Assembly (NCBI GenBank): GCA_017654855.1
Contig: CM030336.1
Location: forward strand, 4,154,001 to 4,218,000
DNA length: 64,000 nt
DNA from: Podospora anserina
Lineage: Eukaryota
Direction of reading: 5' to 3'
A model generated the notes under the pieces. That model was given only the letters and a program-made list of their open reading frames with translations. It made no database searches and had not been told where the DNA came from. Below are positions 1,720 to 49,742 of the stretch, in pieces (positions within the stretch are counted from its first letter, which is position 1; each line of letters starts with the position of its first letter). Made by a program: the position numbers and the translations under genes.

Positions 1720-3637
1720 GTCTGAGATAGCAACGTTCAAAGATCAAAACAAAGATGAAAGGGGGGACTAACAGAGCACCAAAGTCGCACATTGTCCACG
1801 AAAGAAAAGAGGGGCGAACACAGCAGAATATCTATCCCAGACCTCATCCACTATCGTCAACCAGGCTGTAGAGCCTGCAGCTGACACGGTGAGAAAGCTA
1901 CAGTATGCACCCTTACCCGCTCTGGACATGGAGCCCTGCCAGTCAATCTCAACACCAACATCGATAGCTGCAAGCCCACCGCACACCCATTATGCAGCCG
2001 GATACTTCATAGCCACAATGTGCCATGTTCATGTTGAGCTTCATCAACTAGCTACATGACGTCAATCCCACCTTTCCTGTTGCCTCCATGAGTTGCATTG
2101 CCTCAGTGCCGACCATGTTTCGTTCCATTTATTTGTTTCATCGTCTTGAAACTCAAAGGGCACTTTTCAAGAACCACACTCTTGGGAATAATAGCACTTT
2201 CATGAGCCGGTGAGGGTCCAGACCGCTACGGCAATCTCCAATCCCCTAGCGGACGAGGCTGAATTAGCCCCTGCCCCAGCAAAGAAGAAGAAAGAGCCAC
2301 ACCAGATCCCGATAATCCCATATAAGCACTTAGACTCCAGACAGTGTCCACCCAGAGCGCCACTCTCCCTCATCATCCTAGTTGGCAAAATGAGAGGCGC
2401 GAAGAAAGAGCTAGCAGAAAGCCAAGGTTTTTGGCAATCGTATTTGACAACAGGCATCTGCAGCTCTGAATAAAAATAACAAGTGAAACATTTCTGCCTC
2501 AGTCAACCACTGGTGCCAAGTTGTGATGGGGTGCTGCAGCCGGGCGGGGTTCGCATGGTGGTGGTGGTGGTGGTGGTGGGAGACAAACAACCTGGTAAAA
2601 GATGGCGTCGGGACCAAGACAAGGCTGGCGCAAAATGGTCTGGGCATTTGAGCTTGGGTTGTCGGATGGAGTTGGTTGAGTTTGGGGGCCGGGAAGGAAG
2701 GGCGGGCCGAGGGTTTGATCCGAGTGGTCGGGTTTGAGGAGGGACGAGGGTTGTGGTACTGGCGATGAAAGTGAGGGTTTGGTGATGGTGTTGCTGCTCT
2801 GTGTTTGGTGGTGGATGTGGGTTGCGGTCTCGTTTCGACTGGAGGGATGTTGGATGCCGAGCACAAAGTCGAAAGGCATGAGAATTCTGCAGGAGCAAGA
2901 CGTGGGGATATAAGTGCCTGGTTTGGAAGACTTAGCACCAGCCGAAACAACATGGAGTAAGCTTGGGCTGTTTGGTCCAGTGGTATGGCTACGGCACCAC
3001 TTCGATCCAAACTGAGAGAGACTAGGCAACACCGTGAGCCTGAGAACCCTGGACGACGGGGACGCCCCGAGTTCAACTCCCAGCAGGTGGTCGGGTACGG
3101 AACTCATTTGCATTTTTTTTCTTCCAACACCAAACTGACATTTTGCCCTCTGCGATCCAATTTTTGATCACCATCCACCAGCTAAGCCTCCTTCCGTGAC
3201 GACTTGGGTCTTTAGGGCTCGATCGTGGTCAATGGATGGCCAAGCAGGCTTTTGACGGCAAACATCGCCTTGTCCTACGACTCTGTTTTGTATGGCAGTC
3301 AAGTTGTCTCGCCCACTGCCAATCCCAGCTTTGCACCCGAGATCAACTATATATGACTCACCACCTTCCTTCCCGGCGTGACTGGTAACCACGATTTGAA
3401 GTTCAGGATATGAGGTGTTTATGGGACTTGCCGCCGCTTGCGACGCCGGTGCCAGGAGGTAACGGTGACAGTCGCACGCCAGCTCAGCAGTCACACTGCT
3501 CGATGCATGGAACAAAGATGGAATGGGGCCGTCGTCAACTCTAGGCAATAGGACGACGACGCATCATTTCTCGGCCCAGGCATAACTACCTTGAATTGCC
3601 TACAACGGGTGGGAATCGTCCAACTTCGTCGCTATTG

Positions 3638-4636
3638 ATGATGGCCTTCACACGTGTACGCACCATGATGCTGCTGCTTCTCAGCATTAGCAGCACCGTC
3701 TGCCATGCAATACCATCTCCAAACCTCAAAATCCAGACCTATATTACGCACCATAGTGGCAATACGGATGAGGTGCTGAATGTCCCCTTGTACCGGTACG
3801 TCGTAACCCCAAAATCTCTCCGCAAATTGTTTTTTCCCACCCCAAACTGTTCCTAAGAAAGTGTCTCGCGTGCCAGGACCACAGTCACAAATGCCATGAT
3901 AGCCTCGGGGCCGAATTCCCAGTCTGCCCGAGAGAGTAACAGCAATATGTCGTGCTTCTCCCTCGGTTACGGTCTTTCAGCTCGAGACTGCGAGTACATG
4001 GCGTCAATCGGCATGTTCGACCAAGGCCGGAACGCCATCTATAACAACGGCAAGATGTGGATTGGGCGGGACGGGCCGAACACCTTCACCTTCATCAACG
4101 GTGCTGGGGTGCCGATCATTCTCGTCATGTGGTACGCTTTCAACAAGGACAACACTTCCAGTTTCATGAATATCCGCCGTCCCGAGATCACGTACTCACT
4201 CCCCGAGACCGGAAGCGCAGTCGAGATCTCTGTTGCGAATGGGGTGCCGGGGGGTTGGTCAATGATTTACAACTACTCTACTCCGCTGAGCGAGTATGGG
4301 CAGATCAGGAACACGTTCGGGGAGTTCAGCACGGGCGATTACGCCACGGTTGATGTGTCGAGGTTGGTGAATATGGCGGGAAACTCGGTGACCGTTAGAG
4401 TGTTTGGCCACCAGCCTGTCGACACCACTCTACAGCCTGTATGCGTCACTGATATGCGCACTTGCGCGTATGTGTGCACCAGCAGGAGTGTGGGATCGTG
4501 CGGAGCGACGGGGAGTTATCAGTTGGTGAACTGTGGCGGACCCAACGCGGTGGAGGGGATTGATGAACACGGGAATCCCACCGGCGGTTGTCAGGGGTGG
4601 ACGAATGGGGGGCATATCGAAGTTATTTTCCTTTGA
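3638..4636 (+). CDS. Secreted Cys-rich protein (fungal effector/allergen-like)
   Basis: Signal-peptide exon (MMLLLLSISSTVCHA) joins the 246-aa ORF in frame through intron 3796..3876 (GTACGT...CAG). Cys-rich C-terminus CVTDMRTCAYVC...GGCQG. Confidence 0.75.
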
Positions 4637-5088
4637 GTTTTGGGGATTTGGACGGGAATCGGCGGCTGTTTGTTGGGGGAAAAAAAACCAGAACGAGGGT
4701 TGAGAGTGGGGCGTTGAAAGGGAATTTTGACAATGTTTGATTTCTACTCTCATTATATTCGATACGAATAACCAGAGCCATGGACTGGGGTAACAGCCAC
4801 AGCCTGAAAATGATTGCTCATGAAAAGTGAAGGGATTCCGAAGTTGCCTTGTGGTTGGCAGTGGATCATCAGATCGCAGGGGCCTGTGGGGCGATTGATA
4901 AGCTGTGTGGCTGTTATCAGATGGTCGCACAATGCCCCACTTCGCGACCACATCATCTGGGAGCACTGACCGTCTCACCACGGCAGATTCACCGGTGATG
5001 CTTTGTTGCACCTTTCTTTCTCTTCTCTCTGAAGAAAAAGTTGCCGAATCATTGTTTCATCGCTGATTTTGGCCAAGCACACGTGAAA

Positions 5089-6200
5089 ATGAGCGACGCA
5101 AACAAAACCACCGACGTTGTGGCTCCCGCCGACGCGCCGGTAGTCGCACCGGAGCCCGTCACCGCCACGGCCCCAGCTACCGAACCCGCTGCGAAGCCGG
5201 AGGCGCCCGTCACCACCGCCATCACCTCAGCCACAGAGCCCACCGCTACCGCCACAACCACCACTGCTGCGCCTGCCGCTACAGAGACAACCGGTGATGC
5301 CAAACCTGAGACAGAACAGGAAGCCTCTCCACTCGCCCAGCTCTGGGAAGCCGCCAAGAACCATGGTCACCCTGAGATCTGGGGTGTGCCCCTTGCCGAC
5401 CCGGCCAACCACATTCCCAGCCAGATCGTTTTCCAAAAGTATCTCAACGCCAACGATGGCGACCTCGCCAAGGCCAGAGACCAGCTGATCAAGACTTTGG
5501 ACTGGCGCAAGAAGTCTGACCCGTTGGACCTGGTGCGCAGGATGTACTCCAAGTCCAAGTTTGAAGGGCTGGGGTTTGTCACCACCTATGTCGTGGACGG
5601 CAAGGAGGTTGATGAACCCGAGGAGAGAGAGATCTTCACCTGGAACATCTACGGTGGTGTGAAGAGCATTGATGAGACCTTTGGTAATCTGGAGGAGTAG
5701 GTTCCCCTGACAAGTCTCACTGCAGTAGTCAGCTAACTCGCAACAGGTTCATCAACTGGCGCGTCGCCCTCATGGAACTCGCTCTCCAAGAGCTCAACAT
5801 CTGCGGCGCCATCAAGCCCATCACCGCCGACTACGACCCCTACAAGCTCTTCCAGGTCCATGATTACAAGTCCATCTCCTTCCTCCGCTCCCCTCCTCAC
5901 GTCAAGTCTGCCAGCGCCGAGACCATCAAGGTCTTTGCGCAGAACTACCCCGAGCTGCTCAAGGAGAAGTTCTTTGTCAATGTCCCAGCTATCATGGGCT
6001 TTGTCTACGGCTTCATGAAGCTGTTTGTCGCTCCCAAGACCATCAAGAAGTTCCATCCCATGTCCAATGGCGCGAACCTGGCCAAGGAGTTTGCCGAGAG
6101 TAGGATCAAGGGGCTGGGGGAGAAGTTGCCGGCTGAGTACGGTGGTAAGGGCGGGGAGTTGAAGGCTGTGGGGAAGGAGCCTTTTTTGACGGCGGAGTAA
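5089..6200 (+). CDS. SFH5: Sec14-family (CRAL-TRIO) phosphatidylinositol transfer protein Sfh5
   Basis: Motifs HGHPEIWGV, KYLNANDGD, FTWNIYG, QVHDYKSISFLR, NYPELLKEKFFVNVP and LPAEYGG; intron 5697..5746 joins the two ORFs in frame. Confidence 0.92.
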
Positions 6201-42850: not shown

Positions 42851-43610
42851 TCTTGAGGAGGCGCGTCACTATGGCAAACAGGAGCGTTGGTCTGAACCTC
42901 CTCCTGTACGGGTGACGCAACCCGCAGAACTCTGGCCATCTTGACCGGGAGGATGACCATGCTCAACAAGCCCAATAGTAGAACCTTGCTGCTGGATCGC
43001 GCCATCTCCCTCAGAGTTGGCATCCCCGACTTATGAGAAAATGTCTTCCAAGCTGACCCCCGAGCCCTATCCAGGGTGGTCAATGAGATGAGACGGTCCC
43101 CGGCTTATCTTATAGACTGAGGCCTCAAGCCAAGTTAAAACAACGATATTTTTGCCTAAGCTAATCTAAGCCTAAATCTAGCTTAGTTTACCAGCTTGAC
43201 TTTTTATACCCTTTTTTTATCTATAGATATTAATAATAGCCTAATTCGTAGTATTAATATTTTTATCAAAGTAATTTCAAAGCCTATTAAAGGATTATAA
43301 AAGATTAAAAAGGTCCAAATAATAAAGAATTTCTATTTTTATTGCTAATTAATAATTAAATCTTCGTTTGTTGAACTTTGATTTTCCTAGATTATTATGT
43401 TTTAAATAGCATTTCTTAATGACTACTAGTAGCTATATTATTAGGCTTTTTGTAAATTACCTATTAACTTTATTCTTTTTAATGTTATACAACTTTGAAA
43501 TATTTTTAATTATGAAATATTTAACGGTATTATCCTTAAAAAGTAATATCCTCTAGAGTATAATTATTATTACCGGGATTATTACGTTTAGTATTACCGA
43601 ATTAGTAACG

Positions 43611-44009
43611 TGTGACGAACCCCTGTACAGAACCTCTGAAATGGATACTCGGTTGAAGGCTACTTCTGACAATTAGTTCGGTGCAGCTAAACAGTGCACA
43701 ACAAGATGTCTCAATGTAAACATAAGATACCGTGAATACAAGCTGTGATTGCATACTGCGGAACTATCTATCTACACCAGCCAGTTCCTCCGTATATATA
43801 GACCTTGGGACCGTGGACCATTAACTTACAGACGGTCCTCGGTCCACTCCTGATTGGCCGATACTGGACCGTGGACCGTAAGCTCCGCCGCGGTCCCCGG
43901 TCCCCATCTTATTGGTCCGTTTGCCCACCTGGACCGTGAGCCCCGCTCGATCGCGCGGTCCAGTCCTAATTAGTCCCTCGTAGCCCCACTATCTTCCAGA
44001 ACCGTAACA
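43611..44009 (-). mobile_element. 3' LTR of a Ty3/gypsy element (variant A)
   Basis: TG...CA termini, 399 bp, TATA at 43793-43800, adjacent polypurine tract; first ~196 bp homologous to 45469-45663. Confidence 0.92.
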
Positions 44010-44013
44010 TAAT

Positions 44014-44024
44014 GCTCCCTCTCC
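44014..44024 (-). other. Polypurine tract of the retrotransposon
   Basis: Minus strand GGAGAGGGAGCATTA immediately precedes the LTR start TGTTACGG. Confidence 0.75.
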
Positions 44025-44119
44025 AGGCCGAAGTCCCTGCGGCCTAATCTTCTTCCACTACTAATAATATCGTAAGTTTTTCCTCTTTACTTCTCCTACC
44101 TTTATCATGTCCTAATCGT

Positions 44120-44759
44120 ATGCAGAAACGTTATCGTAAGACTGAACAGTCTTCTTCCCTTGCCTCACGAATCCTCCGCTGTGGTTCTGCCGTGATGCCG
44201 TGCTCTACCTGTTTTACCTCCGGAATCCCTTGCATCATGGCCTCTGGGTCTTCACGATGCGCGGAGTGCGTGCGCCGTAAGATTCTATGTGACGGGTCTT
44301 ACGTTGGCTCCGCCCGTGGGTATACCTTCCTTTTCTTCCCGCACCGTAATTGACCACTCTCTAGTGACCCGAACGATGGAAGAGCAGGATAGACTCGAGC
44401 GTGAGGAGCAAGAGCTTGAAGACCAACTCTCGCAACTGACTGCCAAACTTATCCGGGTAAAACGAACACGTCGCTCCCTCCGTGCTCGCGAGGAGCGTCT
44501 TTTCGCGCGGGGTATCCAGGAGGAGGATGCCCAGGTGGCGCAGTCCGCAGCTGCGGCGCTACCTGATTCTTCACCGGGTGCTCCTGCGCGGCCGGACGCC
44601 GCCCAGGACACCGTTCCGTGGTCTCCTCACGTCTCGGACCCTTCCTTAGGCCTTGACTGGCCTTCCGACCTTTCCTTCGATCCTGATGTGGCCGGTCCTT
44701 CCTTCCTGACTCCGCAGGGTGCCGCCGGTGGCGCGCCTTCCACTTCCCAAGGTGGTTGA
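44120..44759 (+). CDS. Retrotransposon-borne antisense Zn2Cys6/coiled-coil protein (about 196 aa)
   Basis: CSTCFTSGIPCIMASGSSRCAECVRRKILC fits CX2CX6CX8CX2CX6C; intron 44316..44364 (GTGGGT...CTAG) joins it in frame to the coiled coil LEREEQELEDQLSQLTAKL; start codon uncertain. Confidence 0.85.
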
Positions 44760-44770
44760 GACGCGTGGCA

Positions 44771-45468
44771 CTACTTGTATCTGGGTCCCCTCACACCTTC
44801 CAACCTCGTAGTGTAGTGTGTAGCACGTCGACCACTACGTCGAGGGCGCAGGTTCGATTCCTGTCGAGGTTCTTTAATATCCAAGTTTATGGGCACAACC
44901 CGTGAACTTAAGTACTTATCTTTTTGTTTGGGTCGGTCTGGGTGTCGCCGGTGGAACTCTTTTAACTTGTCTGGGCAGTTGAGGTTTGCCTCTGGTTCCC
45001 ACGAATTGTCTGTAGCTGGATATCCCAATTAACAAACTAAATTTTCCAATTGGCCTCTGTTGAACCGTGAAATTAGTATTTCTTTTACATTGTATTCTTC
45101 TTCTTTGTCTTCCGCCACTATCTGCGTGTTAGCTTTGCTTGCCGGTAGTGCCGGTTCTAGAAGTAAGATATAAAAAGTATATAACTTTAGACGTATTGTA
45201 TTAGGTAGCTTTAACTCGAATACCGTCTCCGAGATCTTTTTTTTTAACCTTGAATGGGCCTACTCTCCTATAGTCCAGCTTCTTACTAAGTTGTTTAGTA
45301 CGTAAATTGCGTATAGAAAGGAATATTATGTTTCCCCCTTTAAGGCAAGGTCCCTCGAGCTTTTTACTATTATAGTATTTCTGTATTTTTTCCCTTATAA
45401 ACTTTAGTTTTTACTTAAGCTTGCCGTAAAATATATATAGCTTATTTACCTTAACCCTAGCCCTAAGT
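44771..45468 (-). pseudogene. 3' remnant of gypsy pol (integrase GPF motif plus chromodomain)
   Basis: Minus strand reads KKLDYRRVGPF...FELKLP...LLEPA...EEYNVKEIL...GYPATDNSWEPEANLNCP; AT-rich and RIP-damaged from about 45030 to 45468. Confidence 0.88.
44802..44872 (+). ncRNA. tRNA-like cloverleaf with non-canonical 6-nt anticodon loop
   Basis: Acceptor AACCTCG/CGAGGTT, D stem GTGT/GCAC, stem TCGAC/GTCGA with loop CACTAC, T arm GCAGG-TTCGATT-CCTGT; B box GGTTCGATTCC. Confidence 0.8.
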
Positions 45469-45872
45469 TGTGATGAACCCCTGTACAGAACCTCTGAAAG
45501 GAATACGGGTTGAAGGTAACTTCTGACAATTGGTTCGGTGCAGCTAAACAGTGCACAACAAGATGTCTCAATGTAAACACAAGATACCGTGAATACAATT
45601 GTGAATTGCATACTGCGGAACTGTCTAGCCACACCAGCCAGTTCCTCCGTATATATAGACCTTGATTCTCCCCGATCATGGTGATCATTCCGCTCTTCCC
45701 CAATGATCATAATGATCGCTATGATCCTTCTCTGGTTCCTTATTGGTTGTACTTCCGTGATCACTGCACTTCCCAGTCTCATTGCCCATGATCGCCCAGA
45801 CCGCCGTGACCTTGTTCTGATTGGCTGGTGACCTTGCACTGCTCCACCGTTCCCGATGTTAAGGTTGTGACA
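45469..45872 (-). mobile_element. LTR of the same family with a different U3 half (variant B)
   Basis: TG...CA termini, 404 bp; matches LTR A up to TATATAGACCTTG and is unrelated afterwards. Confidence 0.9.
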
Positions 45873-46920: not shown

Positions 46921-48843
46921 CTACACCCGCCTTTGCCATTCCGACACCAGCTCCACCTTTTCCATAGCACACTCCCAACTCCCAGCCTCATTCACATCAC
47001 CAACCCCGTCGTAAGCAGCCTTCTCTGGCCAAGGGCATATGGGTCGTTGAATGAACACGCCCGTGTTTGAGTCAGTTGGCCGATGCCAAGTCGTGGCAAC
47101 AAGCTTGTCGACCGCCTTCCCCTCCTCGGTCCACGCCATCAGTGCCAACAAAGCATCATGGTCGACATCCTCAAACCCCGGTACGGACCAAGTATCGCTC
47201 CCCATAAGTCCTGCCTGAAAAGCGCCTCCAATATTCCATGGTGCATTCGGCTTGCAATCCGGTGTTGAAAAACAGTGTCCCATGCCAGGAATTTGGAAAT
47301 ACCGAATGAACTCACGTACCCCATCCAAGTCGCCCCCAAAGGTGTCAATGGTCTTGTTATAGTACCACCAGGACCCCTTCTCCGGTACCAGGCCATCTGC
47401 CAAACCATGATACAAGATTACCTTGCCACCTCTGTCCTTGAAGTTGGAGATGTCGTACTGGATAGCTGAAGAATGACCAGGATCCAGTCTTTGTGCCTTG
47501 TCGATAATATCCTTCCCAAGCTTTGAGGTACCAGTCCAATCCAACTCCTTGTCGTCATTATCAAGCAGAAAGTCTCTAACATACCCCAGGCCATACGGGC
47601 TCGGTACCGTCCCACCCAACAAGATCGACCACTGATTCTCAGAGCTGAGTGTCAAACCAGGGTACAGCAACTCCCCATCCTCGGATAGCCACCCTTCATA
47701 GACCTTCCTAGCTGTCTCTGCCTGCTCTGCAGTCAGGCAATTACTGATGTTTGTCCCAAACTCTGAGCAAACCAAGGTTCCAAGATCAAACTCGCATTTC
47801 TCAGGACTGCTGACAATGCCATCCTGTACGCCATCCACATCGTCACACTGTCTCATGACCTCTTCGAGCAGTAACGAGAACTTGTTCAATGGAATATGGT
47901 ACGGGTTGGAGTCGTCAGCAGGCAGGTTGTACAAGCCTATCTGCATCAAGAACGGGTTCAGCCTTGCTGTCCACCAGGCAGGGGCCCCGATTAGTGCGCC
48001 ATCGAAGCTATCGGGGAATTCCTGTAGCTCTCGCAATCCCTGCCGGCCGCCGGTCGAACAACCGCTGTAGTATATCCAGAGTTTGTCATGTTTAGGCTGT
48101 TGGTAATATTCTTGAAAGATCTGTTTGCCCAAAACAACGGAACGATGCATGGCTCTCCAGCCCCAGAGTTCCTTCTTCTCGGAGTGGCCGTTTGCCCAGG
48201 AGGTCTCGAGGGCAGTTGAATTGTGACCGGTGTCGGTCGAGAGGGCGGCCATGCCGTGGTGGGGACCTACTGCCCTGTTTTCTTGTTGTCAGCACCGATC
48301 AACAGTGCAATGATTGCGGTGAAGGCGATGCCAGGACCAATCGGACCTCGGTACTCACATGTCAAGCCAGTTGATACCACCGGAGAAGCCCCCATTTCCC
48401 ACCACGAGCAACCTCTTTGTCGAAGGGAGCTTATCAGGTAAGAACAGTCCAAAACGGTAGCTCGCCGTGGTGGAGTGATCGATTTGGAAGGTGACGGCGC
48501 ATAGCGGAGGGAGATTGGTGGGGTTCACTGGGTATGCAGGGTCGGAGGCTCCTTCACCGTAGAAGCCGTTCGCAGGGACAGGGGTCACGTTCTCGACGGT
48601 CACAGGCGTGTTGAGGGTGTGCAAGATAGAGGAAAGATATTGAGAATTGCATTTTGGATGTCTCGCTTGCCGGTCATCGTGTTGTCCTTGGGACTGTCGA
48701 GGTTGAAAATGGTGATTGCGTTTGCATGTCGATGTGGTGGTGGCGGAGTGGAGAATCGGGAGAGGGGAAGGTGATGTAAGGGCGTGGGAGGCGCTGGGGA
48801 GGATCACGACTGCTGTTGTTGTGATGAAGCGCCACAGCGTCAT
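46921..48843 (-). CDS. Secreted tannase/feruloyl esterase
   Basis: Signal peptide, VGNGGFSGGI, STDTGH, YYSGCSTGGRQG nucleophile motif, YHGLADGLV, PGMGHC and RPICPWP; intron about 48358..48273. Confidence 0.94.
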
Positions 48844-49742
48844 CGCTTATTAGTCATTGGTTGCAAGAATATTTGGAGGTGAAGGATTAAATTGAAGCAG
48901 CCTTGAAGGGGGGTCGTTCAGACGTCAAGTGAATGAGGAAGATATATACCAAATCGGCGGTTCTACATGTGCTGACAGCGGCAATAGTGATTGGGGTGAG
49001 ACATGGGGTTTGGGGACAACTGGGTTCATTGCCACGGTATTCCTGCTGTGGCAGAGGGACTGGGAAGGTGGCATTGTGGACAGCTCGTTCTGCTACTTGC
49101 CATTTGACAGAGTATCCATCGTGATTATTTGCAGTCGACTTGGTGACTTTTCAAGGTCATTTAGGTCATTATTGGACGCTTCTCAATCTGATCAGATGAC
49201 GGGTAGCAAGTCCGTGCCGGGCCAAGTGATCCTGGTGGCTGGGATCCTAGACTCGAGCTTCCAAACGGTAAAGCTCTCCAGGCACACTGGAAAGGTCATT
49301 GTGACGACAATAGGAGACTATGGAGCAGCTGTTACCGGGAGCATCCATGGACACAGTTCTCTAGTCGGCAACTGCTAAATCGATCAGTCCACCTTTTCCC
49401 AAACACTACTGAAAAGTCCCTTTTATAGTGACGACAGCCGTAAATCTATACAATTTTTATCCTTCTACGTCCAATCCTGGCCCAGTCCCGGCCCAATGAT
49501 CTATTCCCGTCGCACCAACACCGACCCTCCGATAGCGGCTGAGACCCGGGGGACCACCAACCTCCTCCAGTAGTATAAAAGTAATATGTCGTCTTGTACC
49601 TCAACAAAAATGTGTTATCAGTTTCGACGTGCCAGCACATCCGTAGGCAAGATAGCCTGGGAAAGACGACGACATCCGAGGTAGCTGTCCGGCTGTCCAG
49701 AGATATCCACGACCAGAATTGATTGCCATCTGACGTAATGGA

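Follow-up and report, generated by a model that had tools for sequence, protein, structure and literature searches.

A tRNA-like leader, a hairpin and a T-run on the strand opposite gag-pol in a Podospora chromovirus: a possible small-RNA precursor

A 64-kb stretch of the Podospora anserina genome (assembly GCA_017654855.1, contig CM030336.1, positions 4,154,001 to 4,218,000 of the forward strand; hereafter the window, with positions counted from its first letter) holds a tRNA-like cloverleaf within a Ty3/gypsy retrotransposon, followed closely by a hairpin and a short T-run. Together these three parts make up a module that is a unit of a Sordariomycete Ty3/gypsy chromovirus lineage; running opposite to gag-pol, it occupies the spacer that separates the pol stop from a convergent antisense gene. 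The module recurs at the same place in related elements, and from its sequence we consider it very probable that it belongs to the element as a conserved part, rather than being a stray tRNA. As to its role, we tentatively suggest, by analogy with known systems, that the module could be a tRNA-led small-RNA precursor owned by the element and a product of RNA polymerase III (Pol III), with the tRNA-like sequence as leader, then the hairpin, then an oligo(T) stretch.

The tRNA-like sequence and the parts that follow it

The cloverleaf had been proposed in an earlier description made from the DNA letters and their open reading frames (the sequence-only reading), and two programs return exactly its coordinates. 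ARAGORN reports a single gene in the window, at 44802-44872 (+), labelled 'tRNA-???' with a two-base 'anticodon'; the tRNA family RF00005 is the only Rfam match above the gathering threshold in the same 64 kb, with 49 bits against a threshold of 29 (E 1.9e-7, model positions 1-71), so that scoring with a covariance model, which that reading had proposed as a check, supports it. One anticodon-loop position is absent from the Rfam alignment. The four stems are readily seen by base pairing: the acceptor stem AACCTCG/CGAGGTT, the D stem GTGT/GCAC, the anticodon stem TCGAC/GTCGA and the T stem GCAGG/CCTGT. The other parts named at the time are also there, namely an A-box-like TAGTGTAGTGTG at 44809-44820 (+), a perfect B box GGTTCGATTCC at 44851-44861 (+), which a B-box scan found to be unique within the window, and an anticodon loop of only 6 nt, CACTAC, without U33. 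A decoding tRNA has a 7-nt anticodon loop with U33, and both G18 and G19 in the D loop; the D loop here, AGTGTGTA, has no G18 either, and judged by these features the tRNA-like is predicted to be unable to decode. Its folding energy is ordinary (z -1.25, with 24 of 200 shuffles equally stable), and because the thermodynamics are unremarkable, the case for a tRNA-like rests on the covariance-model score. The sequence is internal to the element, 793 nt from the 3' long terminal repeat (LTR) and 597 nt from the 5' LTR. A search of viral contigs with 24 nt of it gave no matches.

Ten nucleotides 3' of the tRNA-like begins a hairpin with an 11-bp stem and a 5-nt loop, at 44883-44909 (+), which is more stable than expected for its composition (-13.5 kcal/mol, z -3.86, 1 of 200 shuffles equally stable). 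A T5 run at 44921-44925 (+), 49 nt past the tRNA-like, is a candidate Pol III terminator. The sequence-only reading had listed an element-encoded small RNA among its three hypotheses; this may be the one that fits best, although the conserved hairpin and T-run had been missed.

Copies in related elements

A search with the pol tail in metagenome contigs gave at least 69 related loci (handles beginning with L), which together with the window amount to 470 kb. ARAGORN with default settings found a short-loop 'tRNA-???' in one of these, L005, on the strand opposite pol, and a second one in the same locus when introns were allowed; a B-box scan of the related loci flagged L030 and L063. A covariance model was then built from four tRNA-like sequences and run over both strands of the window and the 69 loci. 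It returned five matches (the window, two in L005, L030 and L063) with E between 5e-19 and 2e-11, and nothing else below E 1.9. All five score above the Rfam tRNA threshold of 29, the four copies outside the window with 51.2, 40.1, 35.7 and 32.2 bits. The sequence-only reading had counted occurrence in this copy only, as a chance insertion, against its own proposal; four further copies, in the same place in related elements, speak otherwise. ARAGORN with relaxed settings gave 121 matches at 90% and 951 at 80%, most of them containing giant 'introns', which we regarded as noise and left unused; one weak relaxed match, in L004, lies inside coding sequence.

In every locus with a module the order on the strand opposite pol is the same: LTR, complement of the polypurine tract, antisense gene with a Cys cluster and a coiled coil, tRNA-like, pol end. 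The layout of a tRNA-led Pol III precursor, that is, a leader with A and B boxes, a 3' hairpin and a T-run, is found in all five modules. The hairpin starts 2-10 nt after the discriminator base, and its stem is 11 bp in the window (z -3.9), 20 bp in both the first and the second module of L005 (z -8.0 and z -6.4), 19 bp in L030 (z -7.1) and 16 bp in L063 (z -3.7). T-runs follow at +49 to +57: T5 in the window, T9 in one module of L005 and T5+T10 in the other, and T4 in L030 and in L063. The B box is perfect in four of the five copies and one transition off in L063, which is heavily mutated; the copies in L030 and L063 both carry many transition-type changes and stop codons.

The locus L005 has the two modules in tandem, with the pol stop ~20 nt from the T-run of the second. 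Its pol open reading frame (ORF) is open over 583 aa and contains Integrase_H2C2, rve (31 bits, below the cut-off of 32.6), SH3_Tf2-1 and Chromo (55 bits), and a gag ORF with Retrotrans_gag and a zf-CCHC zinc knuckle lies past the LTR, at 2930-5719. That gag follows directly after the LTR there could mean either a tandem pair of elements sharing an LTR or an assembly that collapsed copies; no TGG-type primer-binding site (PBS) was seen in the sequence after this LTR. In the second tRNA-like of L005, at 1970-2086 (-), an insert of 47 nt replaces the anticodon loop and extends the anticodon arm to ~25 bp, which gives this module a second long hairpin. In L005 the antisense ORF, at 2159-2854 (-), is open through the first tRNA-like and its hairpin, with an out-of-frame TGA exactly at the 5' edge of the tRNA-like.

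Pairing is kept while the sequence changes

When the five tRNA-like sequences are aligned, 93.3% of the 104 cells are standard pairs, as compared to 32-50% in controls with slid partners. Changes on both sides of a pair are seen in 11 of 21 pairs and in all four helices, and none of 500 shuffles reached the observed values of pairing and change. The covariation that the sequence-only reading had proposed to look for is thus present, and the alignment indicates that the cloverleaf is maintained through compensatory changes, at a pairwise identity of 54-83% among the five. The anticodon loops read CACTAC, CATCTT, CATCCTA and TATTCTA, the fifth being the 47-nt insert drawn out as a long arm, and none of the five has U33. 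The hairpins go further still: their sequences are unrelated between families, and therefore it is the shape that persists. The tRNA-sense strand is the one that folds better in eight out of ten module parts, owing to G-U pairs, with one part equal and one worse.

The antisense gene and its transcript

The antisense gene lies on the same strand as the tRNA-like, at 44120-44759 (+), with exon 1 at 44120-44315, a 49-nt GT..AG intron at 44316-44364 and exon 2 at 44365-44759. Its TGA at 44757-44759 precedes the tRNA-like by 42 nt, in agreement with the earlier placing of the cloverleaf just behind a Zn2Cys6-type gene on the same strand. The predicted protein of ~195 aa has a C-x2-C-x6-C-x8-C-x2-C-x6-C cluster encoded in exon 1 and a coiled coil in exon 2; the Zn_clus match is right at the threshold (21.0 bits, cut-off 21). 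Five of the six close homologs matched bear a species name, and all five are from the Podospora anserina complex; named members of the wider family are found in the Sordariomycetes Chaetomiaceae, Verticillium, Metarhizium, Apiospora and Neoarthrinium. A metagenome scan with the protein yielded no confirmed member among 146 pattern matches.

The gene is expressed and spliced. Four sequencing runs from four studies, presumed to be RNA and shown to be so by the GT..AG joint, all have the intron removed exactly (joint 44315>44365), and their contigs cover 44149-45053, 44121-44980, 44136-44979 and 44119-44976 with no mismatches. The spliced transcript, with an assembled extent of 44119-44980 (+), includes the whole module in its 3' untranslated region (UTR, ~44760-44978): in each of the four runs a single contig bridges 44802-44872, and the transcript ends ~105 nt (three runs) or 181 nt (one run) past the tRNA-like. 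The whole 3' UTR folds unexceptionally (z +0.95). These contigs report presence only and are compatible with a cleaved fraction, and the contig gaps at 44011-44118 and ~45054-45150 are uninformative. The sequence-only reading had proposed that a mascRNA-like signal sets the end of the antisense mRNA at about 44801, before the mRNA runs far into pol. The first part of this is at odds with the contigs, which continue to 44976-45053 in all four runs; the supposed purpose fares no better, as in relatives without a module the antisense gene itself overlaps pol.

A possible Pol III small-RNA precursor

We favour, tentatively, a Pol III precursor for the module because the A and B boxes, the T-run, the selection on the stems, the non-decoding loop and a hairpin placed at the RNase Z site are together the layout of such a precursor. 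In this scheme, the internal A and B boxes would recruit TFIIIC and Pol III, which would stop at the T-run and leave an RNA of ~125-190 nt. The non-decoding cloverleaf might then act as a handle for RNase P and RNase Z, and a cut by RNase Z after the discriminator base would release the hairpin as the precursor of a small RNA with targets of its own. RNase P and RNase Z might process the Pol II antisense mRNA in the same way too, the module being in its 3' UTR. We go one step further with still more hesitation, and speculate that an apparently autonomous chromovirus lineage owns Pol III small-RNA genes, sometimes in tandem, which are exchanged as a cassette together with the antisense Zn-cluster regulator, and that it uses the tRNA-processing and RNA interference machinery of its host to make microRNA-like RNAs (milRNAs).

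Several observations weigh against the precursor. The RNA evidence is for a spliced mRNA of Pol II type that passes through the module without being cut; processing, if there is any, must therefore be incomplete, and the uncut mRNA fits a role as 3'-UTR element equally well. The module of the window is the weakest of the five, with its 11-bp hairpin, a run of only T5 and the loss of G18; the T-runs of L030 and L063 are only T4, and no upstream TATA-like element was seen. Even the 19- to 20-bp stems, with a 3-nt loop, are short for a Dicer substrate, and a short-word BLAST of the five hairpins against the 470 kb, which would reveal targets there, matched only the hairpins themselves. The evidence for compensatory changes comes from a pair-count alignment of five sequences that was fitted to the model. 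The copy of the window is only 54-66% identical to the others and could descend from a different tRNA, in which case part of the 'compensatory' changes would be differences between the parent tRNAs.

The distribution of the module weighs on the same side. It is present in only three of the 69 loci (L005, L030 and L063) among the matches listed, of which 66 of 69 have at least 450 nt available downstream of pol. On a tree of the pol tail this amounts to two or three changes. The tree has 63 rows and 110 columns, with many forks unresolved and the partial matches L060, L061, L062, L064, L065, L068 and L069 omitted; it groups the window with L005 in a starred clade of 14, and puts L030 and L063 elsewhere, beside L035, which has no module. 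L035 aligns with L030 and L063 over the pol tail only, with no clean insertion boundary, and since these loci share nothing beyond the pol tail, the part after pol seems to have been exchanged between lineages. Judging from these alignments, such exchange can explain the patchiness of the module. The antisense gene is much more widespread, beside or overlapping the pol tail in 26 of the 69 loci by tblastn, again among the matches listed; a 27th tblastn match (L031) lies elsewhere on the other strand, and the gene of L035 is visible by eye. In most loci with the antisense gene, it overlaps the pol end and the module is absent, as read in L004, L001 and L035. The overlap between the convergent gene and pol in module-free relatives (L001, L004, L009, L011, L012, L035 and others) ranges from tens to more than 100 nt.

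Alternative explanations

The module could instead be a cis-element in the 3' UTR of the Pol II antisense mRNA, acting through partial cleavage by RNase P and RNase Z, or in stability, translation, localisation or particle packaging, and not be a Pol III gene at all. We consider this unlikely, but take it seriously: the spliced contig includes the whole module in all four runs, the module is always directly downstream of the antisense gene and on the same strand, and in L005 the tRNA-like begins right where the antisense coding region ends. Against this, 26 loci have the antisense gene and only three of them the module, among the matches listed; most loci with the gene do without the module, which therefore is dispensable for the antisense mRNA. 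A role in the 3' UTR also leaves the perfect B boxes and the T-runs unexplained, and no triple-helix or A-rich stabiliser was seen upstream by eye.

A role at the level of DNA is less likely still. The B box, with TFIIIC and perhaps Pol III bound, would here serve as a chromatin barrier or positioning site through which the antisense gene or the element stays active within heterochromatin targeted by chromodomain integrases. tRNA genes do act as chromatin barriers in yeasts, the element carries a chromodomain, and the near-complete conservation of the B box across the five copies would be as expected. However, binding of TFIIIC needs none of the acceptor, D and anticodon stems, yet the four helices stay paired through changes on both sides; the conserved hairpin is likewise left unexplained.

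Somewhat less probable again is that the module is a functionless passenger, either a retroposon of tRNA-like or SINE-like (short interspersed element) kind or a captured tRNA gene, which landed in the spacer and then passed from element to element by recombination. The patchy occurrence described above (three of 69 loci among the matches listed, two or three changes on the tree) agrees with this, as do the swapping of the region after pol between L035 and L030 and L063, and the eroded look of the copy in the window. A SINE would be scattered in placement and orientation, with target-site duplications and a LINE-type (long interspersed element) or A-rich tail; instead, all five copies have one relative place, one orientation and one three-part layout, ending in hairpin and T-run, and none occurs elsewhere in the 470 kb. 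Nor would a passenger be expected to keep its pairing at 54-83% identity, or its hairpin after the sequence of that hairpin has been replaced, and one of the carriers, L005, has open pol and gag ORFs.

A part in priming is very unlikely, be it as an element-encoded primer tRNA or through its complement in genomic RNA as an extra tRNA-binding site. The pol-sense genomic RNA does bear the complement of the whole tRNA-like near its 3' end and with the polarity of a PBS, and the PBS of Ty3 is bipartite, with a 3' part. But the complement of the 3' end of the tRNA-like (+CCA) is found nowhere else in the window, allowing up to 3 mismatches, neither in the window nor in L005 does the sequence behind the LTR match any module 3' end by eye, and the G-U pairs favour the tRNA-sense strand. 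L030 contains no 5' LTR beside which a PBS would lie. The sequence-only reading had already noted that the tRNA-like is away from the PBS position, and its place between pol and the antisense gene agrees with this. Finally, an ordinary cellular tRNA gene, or a recent pseudogene, beside which the element inserted would account for the high tRNA score but hardly for anything else and can be set aside, given the 6-nt loop without U33, the missing G18, the position within the LTR-bounded element, with pol on one side and the polypurine tract on the other, and the same arrangement in other elements.

Relation to known systems

LTR retrotransposons are usually seen as Pol II units with gag-pol and at most one extra ORF. 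If our precursor reading of the module is correct, a transposon makes its own structured small RNA by means of the tRNA enzymes of its host, which would be a new layer for LTR retrotransposons and a counterpart, in a retrotransposon, to the tRNA-miRNA units of herpesviruses. Such units are the TMERs (tRNA-miRNA-encoded RNAs) of murine gammaherpesvirus 68 (MHV68), in which non-decoding tRNA-like leaders with internal Pol III promoters are followed by hairpins and a T-run, with stems of ~22 bp. The module resembles them in having leader, hairpin and T-run within a mobile or viral genome, and in the tandem units of L005; it differs in that the genome is that of a fungal LTR retrotransposon and not of a mouse herpesvirus, and in its stems of 11-20 bp compared to ~22 bp. 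Another tRNA-like sequence, that of MALAT1 mascRNA and MEN-beta, is located in the 3' part of a Pol II transcript and is a substrate of RNase P and RNase Z, whose cut makes the mature 3' end. The module shares this location in a Pol II transcript, but the assembled mRNA continues ~105-180 nt beyond the tRNA-like.

Antisense ORFs (aORFs) are known from the plant elements RIRE2, Retand and Grande. Among fungi, the antisense gene brtn has been described in Boty-like Ty3/gypsy elements (Zhao et al. 2011, as cited in the main texts of PMC8365987 and PMC7264820). Like these, the window element is a gypsy element whose extra, conserved antisense gene lies between pol and the 3' LTR, a likeness of arrangement; the passages on Boty in the main texts of PMC8365987 and PMC7264820 do not mention a tRNA-like. 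Our precursor reading would also bear on what gypsy-derived small RNAs do in fungi, Botrytis being one example.

A close fungal parallel is found in Neurospora crassa, a member of the same order, in which, according to the main text of PMC3547838, Pol III makes the major milRNAs and a T cluster lies just downstream. As described there, milR-4 has a tRNA-containing precursor, which RNase Z cleaves at the 3' end of the tRNA to yield the pre-milRNA; the enzyme is needed for the 5' end of milR-4, and the authors liken this route to MHV68. The module shares with milR-4 a tRNA moiety upstream of a stem-loop and a T cluster downstream (PMC3547838, main text), and it would belong to the very order of fungi in which milRNAs that depend on Pol III and RNase Z were first found. 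Unlike milR-4, which on the same account is host DNA between genuine tRNA-Ala genes, the module has a non-decoding tRNA part, lies inside a retrotransposon and is known from sequence.

Pol III promoter sequence derived from tRNA or 5S RNA is also known in the LTR retrotransposons Helenus, Cassandra and Ajax, grouped as 'TRIMp3', with Helenus occurring in fungi (PMC10886601, main text). In the account given there, the small-RNA-like part, which is believed not to encode a functional RNA, lies in the LTR of short non-autonomous TRIMs (terminal-repeat retrotransposons in miniature) of Pucciniales and Agaricomycetes. As far as that description goes, the module differs from Helenus and TRIMp3 in being internal and not in the LTR, antisense, tied to a hairpin and a terminator, and part of a Sordariomycete chromovirus with open integrase-chromodomain and gag ORFs. 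Thus antisense genes in gypsy elements, tRNA-likes in TRIM LTRs, and Pol III hairpin units with a tRNA leader, from a herpesvirus and from the host DNA of Neurospora, are each already known separately. In the main texts of the literature covered we found no description of a tRNA-like, hairpin and T-run unit internal to an LTR retrotransposon; the transposon list of the Podospora genome paper (PMC2441463) may name the family.

The present copy is a concrete locus in an organism used as a genetic model; it is expressed, and at the 90% identity level it is single-copy. It also carries a warning for annotation, as 'undetermined' matches of tRNA scans in fungi can be parts of transposons.

The host retrotransposon and its surroundings

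The element that carries the module, 43611-45872 (-), appears from its sequence to be an internally deleted Ty3/gypsy chromovirus from which gag, reverse transcriptase and most of the integrase are gone. On the minus strand it begins with a probable 5' LTR at 45469-45872, whose inner 196 bp resemble the 3' LTR and whose outer half is diverged and ends GTGACA. An AT-rich leader (45260-45468) joins it to the pol remnant, gag and most of pol being missing. The remnant, at 44771-45259, is the 3' end of pol with the integrase C-terminus and chromodomain; it is broken by a TAA at 45029-45031, after which the frame continues across the module as far as a stop at 44771-44773. The polypurine tract GGAGAGGGAG at 44015-44024 (-) stands 5 nt ahead of the 3' LTR at 43611-44009 (-), 400 bp long and reading TGTTAC...GTCACA on the minus strand, which is a direct repeat of 45469-45664. 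The LTR copies are 88-92% identical over ~196 bp (43611-44009 vs 45469-45664). Purine tracts are found at the equivalent position in L004 and L030, and related LTRs in L004, L005, L030 and L063. No PBS and no target-site duplication were recognised in the element of the window.

There were grounds for doubting a retrotransposon at first, as there is no long pol ORF and the right-hand neighbour is a tannase/feruloyl-esterase gene. The setting proposed in the sequence-only reading is nevertheless borne out by the Chromo match, the integrase similarity, the LTRs and the polypurine tract. The minus-strand ORF 44771-45028, which reads ...EPRQESNLRPRR... across the tRNA-like, has the C-terminal half of a chromodomain at its start (Pfam Chromo 27 bits, cut-off 25.1, match at 44945-45025); upstream of the TAA the same frame reads ...ELKLP...LLEPA..., the end of a gypsy integrase. 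HMMER with the pol remnant retrieved 2615 proteins at E up to 1e-3, the nearest single-stretch relatives being P0018 and P0026 at 51% identity; the 85-aa ORF of the pol frame had no match when compared with longer proteins. We had considered that EPRQESNLRPRR might be the mere antisense translation of a tRNA, with no retrotransposon involved, and dropped this in view of the chromodomain match and the integrase C-terminal similarity upstream. It had also been stated that the cloverleaf is antisense to the last codons of pol. It is indeed antisense to the minus-strand ORF, but pol of the relatives stops 17-18 codons past 'NPDRPK', which in the window ends at ~44927, and the stretch over the tRNA-like is therefore probably fortuitous read-on and not true pol coding. 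The W codon of the chromodomain is the TAA at 45029-45031.

The 3' LTR is a member of a multi-copy family. RNA contigs from other LTR copies span 43611-44010 with mismatches and break at both ends, and others stop at 45872. Over the inner LTR (43611-43815 and 45469-45664) the summed contig depth is 280-1450, as compared to ~150-260 for the antisense gene, and the contigs show mismatches and varied loose ends; the LTR family is therefore multi-copy and widespread in transcript assemblies. The outer halves (43808-44009 and 45665-45872) differ from each other, one consisting of GGACCGTGGACC/GGTCC repeats with ATTGG and the other of GATCATGGTGATCA-type repeats with ATTGG, and a GGATCAC/GTGATCC version of the repeat is seen in L004. 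These halves look like short inverted repeats that are arrayed in U3 next to CCAAT-like boxes and change fast.

AT-rich stretches at 43000-43600 and 45060-45460 (38-42% G+C) flank or fill the element and resemble the outcome of repeat-induced point mutation. The neighbouring tannase/feruloyl-esterase gene, at 46921-48846 (-) (Pfam Tannase, E 3e-73), is ~1 kb from the 5' LTR. Low-depth RNA contigs without mismatches cover the AT-rich leader at 45164-45498, and a possible 56-nt joint, 45392>45449, with CT..AC ends (GT..AG on the minus strand) in two of the four runs hints at a weak minus-strand transcript from the 5' LTR.

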